Below are positions 801 to 16,773 of a stretch of DNA of 20,822 nt, piece after piece. Origin of the DNA: an uncultured virus (IMG/VR IMGVR_UViG_3300045999_010308) (Duplodnaviria; Heunggongvirae; Uroviricota; Caudoviricetes); the IMG/VR virus record IMGVR_UViG_3300045999_010308, positions 62,001 through 82,822 of that record. One strand, 5' to 3'. Position numbers and translations under genes: made by a program. The first letter of the stretch is position 1. Each line of letters starts with the position of its first letter. Below the pieces are notes generated by a model that saw nothing but the letters and a program-made list of their open reading frames with translations, was not told the DNA's origin and did no database searches.

Positions 801-826
801 TGACAACTGATAACTGATAACTGACT
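801..826. repeat. (CTGATAA)n heptamer tandem repeat, STRR-like; other copies near 2820-2845, 3082-3098, 9012-9030, 15913-15931, 16420-16435, 17186-17203, 19763-19775
   Basis: Seen directly as ctgataactgataactga in intergenic gaps; such heptamer runs are characteristic of Microcystis and related cyanobacteria. Confidence 0.75.
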
Positions 827-1460
827 AATTGTCGCAGACAACTCGAAAACCGAGGCTGAAGTTGAAGCGGAAGCCGGGGAAGAGCCAGAAACGAACCGCA
901 CTGCGACAGTACCTCGGATTGATGAACCAAGAACCGCCGCGCAGACAACTATCTTCGCACCACTCCCAAACATTACCACTCATGTCATACAGTCCCCAAC
1001 CATTGGGCTTTTTCTGTCCTACGGGATGAGTTGTGTCATTAGAATTTTCGCTATACCAAGCATAATCTCTTAACTGATTAGCATCATCACCAAAATAATA
1101 TGTAGTAGTTGTACCTGCTCGACAAGCATATTCCCATTCCGCTTCTGTGGGTAGGCGATAGGTTTTACCGGTTATTCGACTCAATTTCTGACAAAAAGCT
1201 CTAGCATCGTCCCAACTAACCTGTTCTACCGGATTTTGGGGATTATTTTTAAAGTGAGAGGGATTGGTTCCCATTACTGCTTGATATTGTTCCTGAGTCA
1301 CCGGATATTTGCCAATCGCAAAACTGTTGACTTTAACTTGGTGTGAAGGCTTTTGATGATTTTGAACATCGGGATCACTATCAGGAGAGCCTATGAGAAA
1401 CTCACCTGCTGGTAAGTTCACCATTTCTAATGCGACTTGATTGGGTAGTTTTTCGGTCAT
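825..1460 (-). CDS. Formylglycine-generating enzyme (FGE-sulfatase/SUMF1, C-type lectin fold) domain protein; probable DGR target
   Basis: Motifs F-x-IGKYPVTQEQY, PVEQVSWDDA, RLPTEAEWEYACRAG, NGWGLYDMSGNVWEWC, RGGSW...CRSA.R...GFRVV. Confidence 0.93.
   Translation of the reverse strand: MTEKLPNQVALEMVNLPAGEFLIGSPDSDPDVQNHQKPSHQVKVNSFAIGKYPVTQEQYQAVMGTNPSHFKNNPQNPVEQVSWDDARAFCQKLSRITGKTYRLPTEAEWEYACRAGTTTTYYFGDDANQLRDYAWYSENSNDTTHPVGQKKPNGWGLYDMSGNVWEWCEDSCLRGGSWFINPRYCRSAVRFWLFPGFRFNFSLGFRVVCDN
828..945 (-). other. Putative DGR variable region (VR)
   Basis: GC-rich 3' end with 11 consecutive C-ending codons (CTC TTC CCC GGC TTC CGC TTC AAC TTC AGC CTC), as expected from adenine mutagenesis of AAC codons. 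Confidence 0.7.
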
Positions 1461-2986: not shown

Positions 2987-2999
2987 AATCTTGTTTTTC

Positions 3000-3082
3000 T
3001 GTGTTTTGGTTACTTTCTATTATGGATCGTTCTCCCAGTAATGTCAACTATCTGGGAGAATCTTTTCTGAACAAGTGTACTA
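3000..3082 (-). promoter_or_regulatory. Family B promoter/operator, copy 1
   Basis: TTGACA-N17-CATAAT; inverted repeat TTCTCCCAG...CTGGGAGAA straddling the -35. Confidence 0.8.
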
Positions 3083-3103
3083 CTGATAACTGATAACTAG
3101 AAA

Positions 3104-4229: not shown

Positions 4230-4313
4230 TGTGTTTTGTTTACTTTTCTATATTAGATCGTTCTCCCAATAAAGTCAAGTATATGGGAAAACTATTTTTG
4301 AGCATTTGTACTA
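4230..4313 (-). promoter_or_regulatory. Family B promoter/operator, copy 2
   Basis: TTGACT-N17-TAATAT; same ~80-bp frame (GTGTTTTGTTTAC...GATCGTTCTCCCA...TGGGA...TGAGCATTTGTAC on +). Confidence 0.8.
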
Positions 4314-4672
4314 CGTCTTTGTTTGTAACGTTGGTGTTGATCCTGTTTTCGTTTAGGATCGAGTTCTCGGTGTTCCAAGCAGTACCCAGATTTGTTTCGG
4401 GCATTAAGTGCCGTAAATTTACCCAAAACTAAGCAGGCATCACAATATTTAGTTTCAGGGATAATTGCTTCTGTAGAAAAGTTGATTCCTTTTTTTGCAA
4501 TTATCTGAGGAGGCTTATCACAGATTAAAGCTACTCTTGTCAAACCTATGCCCGATAAAGAGTAATCTTGTAGCTTAACAAGACTTAAGTTAGTGTCAAT
4601 GTTGTCGATTTTCTGAATAGAAGATTTTAAAACTTCAAAATCTTCCAATTCAAGAGATAAGATTAAGATCAT
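4292..4672 (-). CDS. Hypothetical protein with C-terminal Cys/His zinc-binding motif and basic helix; putative regulator
   Basis: Likely start MILIL at 4672; CDAC...GYCLEH followed by KRKQDQHQRYKQRR. Confidence 0.6.
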   Translation of the reverse strand: MILILSLELEDFEVLKSSIQKIDNIDTNLSLVKLQDYSLSGIGLTRVALICDKPPQIIAKKGINFSTEAIIPETKYCDACLVLGKFTALNARNKSGYCLEHRELDPKRKQDQHQRYKQRRSTNAQK

Positions 4673-5121: not shown

Positions 5122-5136
5122 GATTGTTACTTCTCC

Positions 5137-5217
5137 GTGTTTTGTTTACATTTCTATCATAGATCGTTCTCCCAGTAATGTCAATAAATTGGGAGAATCT
5201 TTTCTGAGCATTTGTAC
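5137..5217 (-). promoter_or_regulatory. Family B promoter/operator, copy 3
   Basis: TTGACA-N17-TATGAT with TTCTCCCA/TGGGAGAA inverted repeat. Confidence 0.8.
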
Positions 5218-5277
5218 CAATAAAAAACGCTTAACTAAGCTAAGTGTTTTTTATTGCTGACTAAGCGATAAGTGTAC

Positions 5278-6541: not shown

Positions 6542-6625
6542 TGTGTTTTGTTTACTCTTTTATATTAGATCATTCTCCCAATAAAGTCAAGTATATGGGT
6601 CAATCTTTTCTGAGCGTTTGTACTA
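6542..6625 (-). promoter_or_regulatory. Family B promoter/operator, copy 4
   Basis: TTGACT-N17-TAATAT; closely similar to 4230-4313. Confidence 0.8.
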
Positions 6626-6644
6626 AGTATATCTACTTGTTATC

Positions 6645-7090: not shown

Positions 7091-7120
7091 TAAACCCCCT
7101 ATGAGTCCATAGGGGGTTTA
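7091..7120. terminator. Hairpin terminator downstream of antirepressor-like gene 1
   Basis: Perfect stem TAAACCCCCTATG-AGTC-CATAGGGGGTTTA. Confidence 0.65.
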
Positions 7121-7130
7121 TCTTGAATGT

Positions 7131-7169
7131 CGGGGTAAAGACCCTCGCTTTTAGCGACGGGAGTGTCAA
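7131..7169 (+). mobile_element. Possible IS200/IS605-family (tnpB) right-end remnant
   Basis: AAGACCCTCGCTTTTAGCGACGGGAGTGTCAA resembles the subterminal hairpin plus GGAGTGTCAA end of cyanobacterial IS605/IS607-type elements; no transposase present. Confidence 0.4.
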
Positions 7170-8102: not shown

Positions 8103-8130
8103 AAAAACCCGTCAATTAATTGACGGGTTT
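8103..8130. terminator. Bidirectional intrinsic terminator
   Basis: AAAACCCGTCAATTAATTGACGGGTTTT perfect palindrome just after the 8134 stop. Confidence 0.75.
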
Positions 8131-8133
8131 TGA

Positions 8134-8415
8134 TTAATTAAATTTTTTGTACTCTTGTAGTATTATTTGGGTTGCCTCCTCAATTTGGGTTCCTTTTGAT
8201 AGCAGTTCAAGGACTTTAGCTAAAACTTGTCTGACTCGTTCTTTACCTATTCCTAATTCTGCTGTAGTTGATGCCACTTTAAAGCGATAGTTCCGATGAC
8301 GGGAAGTAACAGGCACTGGGTCAAGATTATTGTTTTTTGCCCACACCAGATAGATGTAGGCTTGTCTAGAAGTTATCACTTTTGTTTTTCTAGTCTTAAT
8401 TTTTGAAAACATCAA
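8134..8415 (-). CDS. Small HTH protein (sigma region 4-like), last gene of the operon; possible Aca-like regulator
   Basis: ASTTAELGIGKERVRQVLAKV helix-turn-helix pattern. Confidence 0.55.
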   Translation of the reverse strand: MMFSKIKTRKTKVITSRQAYIYLVWAKNNNLDPVPVTSRHRNYRFKVASTTAELGIGKERVRQVLAKVLELLSKGTQIEEATQIILQEYKKFN

Positions 8416-8947
8416 TCATCTGGTATTCTTTGATTAAATCAAGGGAATATACACTCCAAATATGAGCGTCTAAAAAGTTAATTCCCGCATTTTTTGCCGC
8501 TAGTTTATCTTCTTCTCGATCTCCTACCATTAAAATATCGATAGGTTCTTTGGCGAAGGCTCTTAAAGCAGCAAAAATCATCCCAGGATTAGGCTTTCTG
8601 AATTGCTCAATAAGATCGGGGTACAGTTCATCAATTTGCACGCAGGAACATTTTCTCACGCGAAAACATTCCCGTCCTTTAAAATCAGGGCAAAAATAAA
8701 TGCAAGAAAGCCGGGGAAATATTTCTAAAGTTTTTAGCTGTTCTTCAATTGCACTTTTTAAGGATTTATGTCCAGCAGCTACTCCGCCCTGATTAGTGAT
8801 TCCTATCATCGTCCATCCCTCTTGATGGTAAATTTCCATAGCTTTTATCGCCCCTTCGATTGGTTCCTGATCGTTTGGATCTTCGATGAATTTTCCGTTG
8901 GTAGATTGGCGGATCGTGCCATCAAGATCGAGCAATAAAGCTTTCAT
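8396..8947 (-). CDS. HAD-superfamily IIIA phosphatase (GmhB/histidinol-phosphatase/polynucleotide 3'-phosphatase-like)
   Basis: DLDGT motif I, ITNQGG motif II, RKPNPGM motif III, MVGDREED motif IV. Confidence 0.9.
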   Translation of the reverse strand: MKALLLDLDGTIRQSTNGKFIEDPNDQEPIEGAIKAMEIYHQEGWTMIGITNQGGVAAGHKSLKSAIEEQLKTLEIFPRLSCIYFCPDFKGRECFRVRKCSCVQIDELYPDLIEQFRKPNPGMIFAALRAFAKEPIDILMVGDREEDKLAAKNAGINFLDAHIWSVYSLDLIKEYQMIDVFKN

Positions 8948-8955
8948 TTTTTCAA

Positions 8956-8998
8956 ATTTTCCCCTACTTAAGCTTCAGGGCATCCCTAATAGGGATTA
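8956..8998 (-). repeat. 43-bp leader repeat containing a CRISPR-repeat hairpin (copy 2)
   Basis: Minus strand TAATCCCTATTAGGGATGCCCTGAAGCTTAAGTAGGGGAAAAT; differs from 9291-9334 by 2 substitutions and 1 indel. Confidence 0.85.
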
Positions 8999-9040
8999 AG
9001 CGAATAATCAAGACAACTGATAACTGACAACCAATTCAAC

Positions 9041-9277
9041 CTATCTAGTGTTGCATCCCAAAATTCCATAAGGATCGCCGTCTTCCTCCACATCTATACT
9101 ATTCCATCGCTGAATAATTTCTTCAGCAAAAGCCTTAGTTAGCAGGGAACCTGGACGATAATATGATCTTCTGTAATGGGCTACTTCTGCGGCAGTTAAA
9201 ATTTCAGAAGTAGTAGCCCGGGAGTTGATGTAGTTAGCAAATTCTTGAGCAGTCATTACCTTTTTGGAATTAGCCAT
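9041..9277 (-). CDS. Small hypothetical protein (78 aa) bracketed by CRISPR-like hairpins; anti-CRISPR candidate
   Basis: ORF with purine-rich leader; function inferred from context only. Confidence 0.65.
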   Translation of the reverse strand: MANSKKVMTAQEFANYINSRATTSEILTAAEVAHYRRSYYRPGSLLTKAFAEEIIQRWNSIDVEEDGDPYGILGCNTR

Positions 9278-9290
9278 TGCCTTCTTGATG

Positions 9291-9404
9291 ATTTTCCCCC
9301 TACTTAAGCTTCGGGGTATCCCTAATAGGGATTAGATAAAGCGCACGCAACTACGACTATAGTTCATAGTTTCAATTCCTAATAGGAGTTCTTTGTGCAG
9401 CTAC
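9291..9404 (-). CRISPR. Solitary CRISPR-like unit: repeat (9369-9404), spacer (9335-9368), degenerate repeat/leader (9291-9334); no cas genes
   Basis: GTAGCTGCACAAAGAACTCCTATTAGGAATTGAAAC (36 nt, GT...ATTGAAAC, hairpin TCCT-ATT-AGGA), then TATGAACTATAGTCGTAGTTGCGTGCGCTTTATC, then TAATCCCTATTAGGGAT. Confidence 0.7.
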
Positions 9405-9470
9405 CTTAAGTAAATCACTTAATTCTTGATAGGTGTTGGCGAAGCGTGCCGCTTTAGGCACTGGCACGCT
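9405..9470 (-). promoter_or_regulatory. Family C promoter/operator, copy 1 (upstream of the CRISPR-like unit)
   Basis: TCTTGATAGGTGTTGGCGAAG shared with the 9968-9988 copy; inverted repeat AGCGTGCC-N12-GGCACGCT. Confidence 0.6.
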
Positions 9471-10312: not shown

Positions 10313-11362
10313 TTATTCTGTAAACCACTGTAAATAAATCTGATGCGCTATCTGTGCAGTCATTACAGGAGGCACGCTCATTCCTATTAAATACTTTGGA
10401 TCGATATTTTTAAAGTTGTAATCGAGTGGATAGCTACCAATTAGGCAAGTTGCTTTATTTGATATATAATTATTTAAGTTACTGTGTATTAGCTTCTTGT
10501 TGCTTGCTATTACTGTTAAAGGCGTTTGATTTTCTAAGCAAACAAAAGTAAATCCAATGCTGCCGATTTTGCCATTTAAACTTTTTTTATGTGTTTGTAA
10601 CACACCTGTTGATGTTATAGGGTTTTTTAAAAGTTTTTTTATATAATTATGTTTAATTGCTTCTCCAATTTCATTTGTTCCAAATTCACCAAACAAAATT
10701 GGCTCTTCATTAAAATTTAACTCTAGATTTTTAAAGTTTAAATCATTCCTTTGACAAATAAAGAACACTCGCTCACGTTTTTAAGGCACTCCCATGCTTG
10801 CGGCGTTCAAAAGAAATAACTGTACTTTATATCCTGCTTTTTCAAATTCATCTTTTATTCGCTTTACATACGCTTTGGCATTACCTTGAATAATTCCTTT
10901 AACATTTTCAGCGATAACGACCTTTGGCTGTAGTTTTTTTGCTAATCGTATGTAATCAAAGAAAAGGTCATCAAGCCGCTGTTTAGCCTGACCTTCCCTA
11001 AATACTTTTTCTTTCCCCCAGTCTTTTTCTCTATTTCCTGCTATGCTAAATGAAGAGCAGGGAGGTGAGCCGTCTAAAATATCTAGGTTATAAAGTTCAT
11101 TAGGAAAGATTGTACGATCAGCAAAATCTCTTATATCTTCAATAAATAAATATTTAGGATTGTGGTTAACTTTATATACATCAGCTACCTGCGAGTCTAT
11201 TTCAACACCTCCTAAATGGTCAAAACCTGCTAACTTGTAACCCATAGTCGAACCACCGCCACAGATAAAAGTACCAAATACTTTTAACCCATGTTTTTCA
11301 ATTCCAGGTGCTGGGTATCCATCTGACAAATTCCACTTATATGCAAATTTATGTTTAGTCAT
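10313..11362 (-). pseudogene. C5 DNA cytosine methyltransferase interrupted by a single in-frame TAA (10781-10783)
   Basis: Motifs FICGGG (I), GSPPCSSFS (IV), ENV (VI), GVP*KRERVFF (VIII; normally GVPQxRxR), IGMSVPP (X); both ORF halves are in the same frame. Confidence 0.88.
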
Positions 11363-16673: not shown

Positions 16674-16759
16674 TGTGCTTTTGCTTGCTTGATTTTATCT
16701 TGCATCATTCTCCCAGTAAAATTAACTATCTGGGAGAATAATTTCTGAACGTTTGTACT
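16674..16759 (-). promoter_or_regulatory. Family B promoter/operator, copy 5 (degenerate -35/-10, intact operator)
   Basis: ATTCTCCCAG-TAAAATTAACTAT-CTGGGAGAAT...TTTCTGAACGTTTGTACT. Confidence 0.65.
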
Positions 16760-16773
16760 GCTTGATAACTAAT

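Follow-up and report, generated by a model that had tools for sequence, protein, structure and literature searches.

A CRISPR subtype I-D repeat hairpin in a candidate leader module of Microcystis phages

Introduction

Phage-borne solitary copies of CRISPR repeats have been described as RNA anti-CRISPRs (Racrs), which bind Cas proteins and block immunity, and the available parts of that report place them often just downstream of promoters and near acr genes (PMC10651486). There, RacrIC1 lies on one transcript with acrIC5, and a non-targeting CRISPR RNA (crRNA) is also reported to lower interference. Subtype I-D solitary units from IMG/VR3 take up 48 rows of its supplement, as full-length repeat copies, and the available parts contain no tested I-D case. 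Viral crRNA-like RNAs (Cracrs) are reported for subtypes V-A, I-B, I-C, I-E and I-F, and the three phyla named in the available text do not include cyanobacteria (bioRxiv 10.1101/2024.10.29.618823). The present study concerns a short leader element that holds the stem-loop of a subtype I-D repeat and precedes two consecutive genes in a stretch of 20,822 nucleotides (nt) from an uncultured virus of the Caudoviricetes, called the window below. The window is the final 20.8 kb (positions 62,001 to 82,822) of IMG/VR virus record IMGVR_UViG_3300045999_010308, a linear record of 82,822 bases with an estimated completeness of 91%.

Two reports bear on how a subtype I-D hairpin would be handled in a cyanobacterial host. 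Cas6 for this repeat type is reported to cut at G29^A30 and to require a stable hairpin (PMC5741207), and Nostoc phage N-1 has a cas-less array with a repeat of the same family that is reported to be cut by the I-D Cas6 of the host (bioRxiv 10.1101/2020.04.14.041012). In Microcystis aeruginosa the GTTCCAATTAATCTTAAACCCTATTAGGGATTGAAAC repeat was linked to subtype I-D in 12 of 14 strains (PMC4428289). A preliminary description of the window had proposed that the leader hairpin acts as a CRISPR-sensing translational switch, and that no such system had been described. The latter statement was too strong, as both RNA anti-CRISPRs made of solitary repeat units and viral crRNA-like RNAs have been published. 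Repeat hairpins in cyanophage mRNA leaders were not found reported in the openly accessible literature and part of its supplements.

Results

The leader element was recovered by the repeat search as family D19 (8957-8998 and 9293-9334; 42 nt, 93% identity, spacing 336 nt). As the preliminary description had stated, the same hairpin is present in the leaders of two consecutive minus-strand genes, 8 and 13 nt before the ATGs of a HAD phosphatase open reading frame (ORF) at 8396-8947 and a 78-amino-acid (78-aa) ORF at 9041-9277. Both copies match the string ATCCCT-ATT-AGGGAT-(G/A)CCC(T/C)-GAAGCTTAAGT-AGGGG(G)-AAAAT on the minus strand, in which AGGGG(G) resembles a ribosome-binding site (RBS). 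That description had overlooked a third, degenerate unit with the repeat handle (minus strand, 9390-9369), 36 nt upstream of copy 2, as well as a repeat array of the phage itself outside the window. The parts of the element, referred to as units A and B, are as follows.

8956..8998, minus strand: leader copy 1 (unit B alone), 8 nt before the HAD-IIIA ATG; hairpin 1 at 8996-8982, 5' arm of hairpin 2 (CCCT) at 8980-8977, RBS-like AGGGG at 8965-8961
9291..9334, minus strand: leader copy 2 (unit B), with the ATG of the 78-aa gene 13 nt further on; hairpin 1 at 9332-9318, CCCC at 9316-9313, AGGGGG at 9301-9296
9333..9368, minus strand: spacer-like stretch of 36 nt between units A and B
9369..9401, minus strand: unit A, a degenerate CRISPR repeat (...GCACAAAGAACTCCTATTAGGAATTGAAAC) in which the hairpin TCCT/AGGA and the 8-nt handle ATTGAAAC are kept
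9403..9408, minus strand: candidate -10 element TAAGGT, identified by eye only, some 7 nt ahead of the conserved GCACAAAG; relatives have TAAAGT or TAGAGT

Both B copies are intergenic and far from the TnpB-like genes of the phage, and each covers 15-19 of the 37 nt of the repeat. Copy 1 sits within the operon, 43 nt past a stop codon. In the entire record there are two exact occurrences of the 15-nt core ATCCCTATTAGGGAT, and when up to two mismatches were allowed the two leader sites were still the only ones in the window, against 0.04 expected from shuffled sequences.

Comparison with known arrays agrees with the earlier view that this is a CRISPR hairpin of the type bound by Cas6. The sequence TAATCCCTATTAGGGAT is identical to the stem-loop of 37-nt repeats that share the 18-nt 3' part CYTATTAGGGATTGAAAC and are found in at least 122 cyanobacterial loci, most of them with a periodicity of about 72 nt; in Microcystis this family, there named DR1, is reported to belong to subtype I-D (PMC4428289). 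Sixty-two distinct array repeats could be aligned without gaps, most carrying ATCCCTATTAGGGAT and the others a near variant. As the last 18 nt served to choose this set, the lack of variation in these columns is built in. Unit B corresponds to the I-D stem-loop with up to four flanking bases, which make up the first 17-19 nt of the leader repeat, and it is without the 16-nt 5' part of the CRISPR repeat (GTTNCAAT...) and without its 8-nt 3' handle. Directly 3' of the stem-loop lies a short GC hairpin, the 3' arm of which is the RBS.

A covariance model built from the 62 repeats was run over the whole phage with filters off. The top matches were three repeats of the phage's own array (40.1, 27.4 and 23.3 bits), followed by the two B copies (B1 at 8982-8996 and B2 at 9318-9332) with 20.2 bits each. 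Both copies equal the consensus at model positions 17-31, that is, the stem-loop CCCTATTAGGG with flanking A/T pairs. Unit A came next (9369-9390, 18.7 bits, model positions 16-37), with the handle kept and a weak 5' part, and two further array repeats of the phage scored below the leader units, at 18.4 and 12.6 bits. Three leader matches on one strand, within 410 nt and ranked just behind the best array repeats, are jointly not borderline. One other match of the model (L003 9423-9455), within a coding sequence of the opposite strand, was taken as chance.

At 9390-9369 unit A reads AACTCCTATTAGGAATTGAAAC, and the hairpin starts of units A and B are 57 nt apart. The leaders do not have the array-like periodicity of about 72 nt with several spacers; unit A is followed by 36 nt, unit B and then 336 nt to the next B. 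Across lineages the spacer-like stretch exists in at least five versions, which diverge over the 5' 17-23 nt and are conserved over roughly the 3' 16 nt. Where the candidate -10 of the window lies, diverged GC-rich relatives have TTGACA-17-TAAGAT (L154) or TTGACA-17-TAGTAT. Consensus promoters precede the unit in L154, L183 and L150, and L183 and L211 combine a promoter with a full repeat-spacer-repeat. In nearly all relatives a degenerate repeat with an intact handle, near a promoter-like site, precedes one B copy by 34-54 nt. The leader therefore resembles a mini-array with a single spacer, the last repeat of which has been shortened and joined to an operon whose first gene varies.

Seventeen IMG/VR loci have the 31-nt leader pattern without any mismatch, and the 15-mer core is found in 85, roughly half of which are unrelated coding or chance matches. 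Nearly all homologues have the same order, namely the -10-like TAAGGT, TAAAGT or TAGAGT, GCACAAAG, unit A, 34-54 nt, unit B, CCCC, the loop of hairpin 2 (10-12 nt), AGGGG and ATG. The succession of unit A, stretch and unit B (a psiR-psiS-psiR layout) was seen in 26 distinct sequences. When the genes behind 23 distinct modules were compared, seven modules preceded the HAD gene, eight the 78-aa gene, five the 126-aa family and the rest three other genes, and the module heads at least six different first genes. Where the 93-aa gene is present it ends the operon, with variable small genes before it. The GC-rich contigs L192 and L154, which are otherwise unrelated, have ATCCCTATTAGGGATACCCCGAA and AGTAGGGGAAA exactly, and their loop and spacer-like stretch differ. 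Judged from these sequences, the leader is a portable 5' leader module of a Microcystis phage lineage, with a CRISPR repeat as its source.

Only where the 78-aa gene precedes the HAD gene is there another B copy that lacks unit A, which is the case in the window phage, four other viral contigs and two metagenome contigs. A co-occurring variant in an RNA-library contig skips 8961-9296 exactly (336 nt), with 16 nt ambiguous at the joint. The preliminary description had likened the 78-aa gene to a giant spacer. It is indeed flanked by two copies of the repeat; given the 336-nt skip and the existence of one-copy and two-copy contigs, it is better read as a cassette that is gained or lost by recombination at the module.

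Two side observations concern the core sequence elsewhere. In L150, L175 and L200 the 15-mer lies in a 5' untranslated region and is followed by a GC hairpin (GTCC/GGAC, TGCCTG/CAGGCA and GCCC/GGGC, respectively), and in L150 it stands 13 nt after TTGACA-17-TAATAT. These could be further members of a two-hairpin leader family or chance, and they were used as a lead only, since a 15-mer can recur by chance in a large collection. In a host-type I-D array from a metagenome (L314, contig VYLM01000028.1), a 35-nt spacer is the leader itself (the end of the stretch, the hairpin and ACCCCGAAGC; L178 type), so the host samples the leader element. A crRNA from this spacer would contain an internal Cas6 hairpin.

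The phage was matched by all 17 Microcystis genomes searched, and its host is Microcystis. Spacers matching the phage with up to three mismatches make up 14 of 28 and 6 of 32 in two Microcystis I-D arrays, and 6 of 35 and 2 of 9 in two III-B arrays; the counts exclude the I-D arrays L284 and L286 (0 of 33 and 0 of 10), whose repeats were incompletely extracted and whose figures are uninformative. In the first I-D array, GTN is found 5' of 12 of the 14 protospacers. Genes for Cas6 (278 aa; for example L357:14918-15754), Cas1, Csc2 and a Cas3-like protein adjoin the I-D arrays that match the phage, and the host thus has the CRISPR-Cas subtype that matches the leader hairpin, with Cas6 and anti-phage spacers. 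The Microcystis I-D system targets the phage heavily. When the phage was searched for mimics of the Microcystis III-B repeat, the sole match was one 18-mer with three mismatches, and the repeat mimicry is specific to I-D. The preliminary description spoke of prophages; the record is a phage contig, and a prophage state is not shown. The large terminase (TerL) is of the T4 type by a Pfam-type domain search. All its matches are below 60% identity, which leaves the phage without a close cultured relative, and neither the region nor the leader had a blastn match among cultured phage genomes.

The phage's own array outside the window (G000, about 44460-44860) has six heterogeneous repeats of I-D type and five spacers, none of which matched among cultured phages. 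In the array region (G000:C1, about 42262-46842; L003 2262-6842, minus strand), the array leader shares GAACCTTGAAAAC with the leaders of host I-D arrays. Two TnpB/Cas12f-like genes flank the array; their products (629 and 561 aa) have OrfB_IS605 and Cas12f1-like TNB domains, and their closest solved structures are Cas12f, Cas12p and TnpB. A dependence of the leader on these genes was considered and is unlikely, because the complete relative G022 has the module and no such gene.

A cultured Microcystis phage provided a second case. MaMV-CH01 (Fukuivirus, PP681321.1) has solitary I-D repeats before the three consecutive genes 184L, 185L and 186R, at distances of 12 nt (184L), about 60 nt and about 40 nt.

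PP681321.1, about 152650-153160 (L269 745-1241): solitary repeats of MaMV-CH01

In the window phage the 184L homologue immediately follows the final repeat of its own array. An I-D repeat before a gene is thus not peculiar to the lineage of the window phage. MaMV-CH01 also has a promoter-driven repeat-spacer-repeat (40275-40438; L397 976-1139) with two perfect I-D repeats, both scoring 54.7 bits. The 39 nt around its own TTGACA...TATAAT promoter and its 39-nt spacer show 90% complementarity, and the element may be a self-directed guide or a long hairpin.

The preliminary description had proposed that hairpin 1 competes with a pairing of the same AGGG with the downstream CCCY, which in turn pairs with the RBS, and that translation therefore depends on Cas6 binding or cleavage. 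RNAfold places hairpin 1 next to the CCCC/GGGG hairpin (hairpin 2) in the minimum-energy fold and in the centroid fold of each leader, so that neither excludes the other, and folding energies were no better than those of shuffled sequences (z -0.30 and +0.08). In a 75-nt context the alternative fold of copy 1 is nearly as stable as the other (-14.3 versus -14.7 kcal/mol; p 0.40 versus 0.55), whereas in copy 2 it has p 0.001 and a penalty of 3.3 kcal/mol. When 25 distinct homologous leaders were folded in a 90-nt context, the alternative pairing did not exceed 0.18 in any of them, hairpin 1 had p >0.8 in 21, and hairpin 2, which pairs the RBS with CCCC, had p >=0.7 in 11. In an alignment of 23 distinct rows hairpin 1 is invariant, hairpin 2 is 95.7% paired without a compensatory change, and the closing A-U pair of the alternative helix is present in only four rows. 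Leaders with AGAGG or AGGAG lose hairpin 2, and no change compensates for it. A simulated cut at the base of hairpin 1 left the pairing of the RBS unchanged, which speaks against the idea that cleavage by Cas6 alters RBS accessibility. By these folding and alignment results the toggle is not a conserved feature, and the models do not support it. One fold also joined sequence 5' of unit A to the conserved 3' part of the stretch in a closing helix. This helix was dropped, because transcription probably starts downstream of its 5' strand and it was lost in RNAalifold.

The covariation check that the preliminary description had suggested was informative for one of the two units: in 2 of 22 sequences a U-A pair of unit A is replaced by C-G, a compensatory change, and the stem of unit B never varies within the aligned family. 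A search with the spacer-like stretch, which does not depend on unit B, retrieved 36 loci. Unit B has the canonical core in 28 of these, a loop change in four and a C>U change that leaves a G.U pair in three, and the core is deleted in one; stem-breaking changes were not found among them, and unit A adds one wobble-keeping C>U change (two loci). The wobble-keeping changes and the compensatory pair in unit A favour an RNA hairpin over a DNA palindrome, though the events are few.

The region was found in four metatranscriptome runs from three studies, as assembled contigs. Such contigs give neither strand nor true ends, and no inference on transcription or cleavage was drawn from them. Some contigs stop near the B copies, and the stop at 9290 coincides with the branch to the co-occurring variant. 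For X15, positions 9359-9399 (unit A) were covered by no contig.

The genes behind the leaders and the end of the operon are as follows.

9041..9277, minus strand: 78-aa ORF of no known family, between the two B copies; many relatives are without it
8396..8947, minus strand: HAD-IIIA phosphatase gene (GmhB/histidinol-phosphatase-like, with a weak DNA 3'-phosphatase match)
8134..8415, minus strand: 93-aa gene, last of the operon, with a sigma-70 region-4-like helix-turn-helix below threshold (Sigma70_r4 E 0.043)
8104-8131: hairpin and T-run after the 93-aa gene, read by eye; the terminator scan did not list it

The HAD assignment made earlier holds, as the protein matches the HAD-IIIA model TIGR01662 with 56.8 bits against a cut-off of 44.6, and Pfam agrees. 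It also has weak matches to polynucleotide/DNA 3'-phosphatase models (PNK3P E 1e-6; TIGR01664 E 7e-5), and a link to the healing of nuclease-cut RNA ends is only a thought. Searches of Pfam, PHROGs and NCBIfam gave no family for the 78-aa, 155-aa, 126-aa, 120-aa and 91-aa proteins; the 126-aa protein has 70 homologues, all unnamed.

Several other features of the window were recorded. A 46-nt element at 7117-7162, which is not a CRISPR spacer, has many copies of up to 98% identity in all 17 Microcystis genomes and is a possible mobile-element end. Repeated modules precede minus-strand genes at 2999-3085, 4230-4316, 5136-5222, 6542-6628 and 16677-16763, and further repeats are D8, D10/D11 and D15/D20. 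Family D1 (minus strand) has, by eye, TTGACT-17-TAATAT inside the inverted repeat TTCTCCCA...TGGGAGAA, and promoter-operator cassettes seem to be reused throughout the region. A C5 cytosine DNA methylase gene is split (10313-10768 and 10781-11362, minus strand; 151 and 193 aa), likewise in L018, and is a single ORF of 348-357 aa in relatives. The gene at 825-1460 (minus strand), for a formylglycine-generating-enzyme/sulfatase-modifying-factor protein, has 84% DNA identity to a Microcystis gene and looks host-derived.

Discussion

The explanation we put first, with a confidence that is about evenly balanced, is that the leader acts as an RNA similar to Racrs and solitary repeats that would be bound or cut by the I-D Cas6 of the host. 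It starts from the identity to the repeat hairpin, the mini-array layout, the use before different genes, the cassette indel, and the host with its CRISPR pressure. The module would be transcribed as the head of the operon RNA, and the host Cas6 would bind the hairpins and probably cut at G^A behind them. Cas6 would in this way be tied up, and a non-targeting crRNA-like RNA, consisting of the handle, the 36 nt and the hairpin, could compete with anti-phage crRNAs, by analogy with the solitary-repeat RNA anti-CRISPRs. The same cut would release the downstream mRNA with a 5' hairpin. The decoy role and the mRNA-maturation role are not separable here.

The module resembles the Racrs of Camara-Wilpert et al. 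2023 in that it is a phage copy of a repeat outside a cas locus, matches the subtype of the host, lies near a promoter-like site and would share its transcript with protein genes. It differs in copying only the stem-loop, in having a second hairpin with the RBS where the handle would be, and in that most copies are paired with a second, degenerate repeat. It also stands 8-13 nt before the start codons of several different genes, which suggests that it belongs to an mRNA leader rather than being a small RNA in its own right. With Cracrs and the host CreA/CreR RNAs it shares the arrangement of degenerate repeat, short spacer-like stretch and degenerate repeat, here on a phage; unlike them it has no partial match to a cas or toxin promoter in the 17 genomes and four I-D loci searched, and it is of subtype I-D, cyanobacterial and fused to an operon. 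The cas-less mini-arrays of cyanophages such as Nostoc phage N-1 (PMC4916379) have the same repeat family and are reported to rely on the host Cas6, whereas the module has one non-matching stretch, a truncated last repeat and a fusion to coding genes. What appears to be new, as far as the sequence comparisons go, is a repeat copy reduced to its hairpin, joined to an RBS and employed repeatedly as a leader, in subtype I-D and in cyanobacterial hosts. An engineered counterpart also exists: Qi, Haurwitz, Arkin and colleagues reportedly placed Csy4/Cas6f hairpins in 5' untranslated regions and between cistrons in 2012. There, too, a Cas6-type hairpin stands just before the RBS and cleavage gives genes a standard 5' end. 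That device is synthetic, and a natural case is shown neither here nor in the literature found.

Several observations weigh against this explanation. Unit B covers only positions 17-31 of the 37 in the model, its single matches are borderline (E about 0.12 with a rough calibration), and it would probably fail the coverage rule of solitary-repeat finders. Its hairpin continues as AT(A/G)CCC(C/T)GAAGC where the I-D repeat has the handle ATTGAAAC. The stem of unit B is invariant in the family, so covariation says nothing about it, and most of the aligned family sequences were retrieved via the hairpin itself. A scan of the window found no consensus sigma-70 promoter, and the conserved TAnnGT was read by eye only. 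Contigs from the RNA libraries span unit B uncut (X16 8793-9290 and X17 8740-9005 over B1; X15 9117-9358 over B2), and those bridging B copies may be DNA carry-over. The phage's own five-spacer array of I-D type fits a phage that uses the host system rather than one that shuts it down.

One of the alternatives is that unit A, the stretch and unit B form a Cracr or other crRNA-like RNA, whose variable 5' part guides the host I-D Cascade to a host promoter, for instance of cas or a defence gene, or to a rival phage. The psiR-psiS-psiR layout behind a promoter-like site is that of the viral crRNA-like RNAs reported for V-A, I-B, I-C, I-E and I-F (bioRxiv 10.1101/2024.10.29.618823), the flanking units persist while the 5' part of the stretch is exchanged, and the repeat-spacer-repeat of MaMV-CH01 offers a case of a spacer complementary to a promoter. 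As the variable 5' part looks like an exchangeable guide, a target search was made. The stretch had no further match in the phage's own genome. Its first 18 nt, with up to three mismatches, gave 12 matches in the 17 Microcystis genomes compared to 111 for the reversed control, and seeds of at least 10 nt from 14 stretch variants were absent from 112 kb around four Microcystis I-D cas loci. All 36 exact matches of 20-21 nt in IMG/VR lay inside modules (31 of 31 and 5 of 5 for two variants), and a third variant gave none. This lack of a target in the phage, the Microcystis genomes, the cas loci and IMG/VR, together with a 3' third of the stretch that is conserved like a structural part, makes a guide role unlikely.

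The module may also be a relic, a decayed mini-array whose last hairpin now does no more than form part of an ordinary leader, with the conserved block kept as a supply of RBSs and as a patch of homology for cassette exchange. T4-type phages have promoter-stem-loop cassettes, to which such a patch can be likened. The 336-nt indel is bounded by both copies, with its ambiguous 16 nt at the joint, and one-copy and two-copy contigs both exist; there are many other repeated intergenic modules in the window (D1, D10, D15/D20), and the leaders fold no better than shuffled sequences. However, the hairpin and the CCCC...GGGG block are exact in GC-rich contigs whose flanks and proteins have diverged, and loop changes are common while stem changes only preserve pairing. 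Full solitary repeats are, moreover, placed alike in unrelated cultured Microcystis phages. A relic and recombination scar is therefore doubtful, to about the same degree as a guide.

A DNA operator was also considered, in which the palindrome is bound by a phage regulator such as the 93-aa protein and the likeness to CRISPR is historical only. A dimer could well bind arms of 6 bp separated by 3 bp, the start of the operon is near, and variable small genes followed by a conserved small helix-turn-helix-like gene would be analogous to the control of acr operons by Aca proteins. The changes in the stem argue otherwise, as the three C>T changes (sense strand) keep a G.U pair in RNA and break the symmetry in DNA. 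No promoter was found for copy 1, which is internal to the operon with a stop codon 43 nt before it, and unit A retains a single-stranded handle that a DNA operator would not need. The helix-turn-helix assignment of the 93-aa protein is below threshold, and one relative with the module (L007 type) has no 93-aa gene within 2.6 kb. We regard an operator as quite improbable. The translational switch is very improbable, since the near-equal folds of copy 1 and the RBS pairing in some leaders are outweighed by coexisting hairpins and an alternative pairing that is weak in copy 2 and throughout the homologues.

A bolder extension of the Racr-like explanation, which we hold only tentatively and consider unlikely, is that at least two unrelated Microcystis phage lineages, the 65-90-kb group of the window phage and the MaMV phages in culture, which are Ma-LMM01-like, purposely put hairpins for the host I-D Cas6 before accessory or counter-defence genes, so that Cas6 both matures their mRNAs and is titrated. 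If this is true, mRNAs matured by Cas6 would have a 5'-OH end followed by a protective hairpin, Cas6 would be drawn off crRNA production, and expression of the cassette would be coupled to an active CRISPR system. The leader would then be the natural counterpart of the synthetic Csy4 insulator, and the first natural Cas6 site built into mRNA leaders. It would also offer a possible reason why Ma-LMM01 infects hosts with matching spacers; phages with matching protospacers are reported still to infect Microcystis (PMC5780444).

Microcystis ranks with the organisms that have the most defence systems, and phage spacers fill its I-D arrays. The module shows that accessory genes of its phages are swapped as cassettes between conserved leaders, and a leader common to uncultured and cultured Microcystis phages is a concrete candidate for RNA-based counter-defence against subtype I-D.

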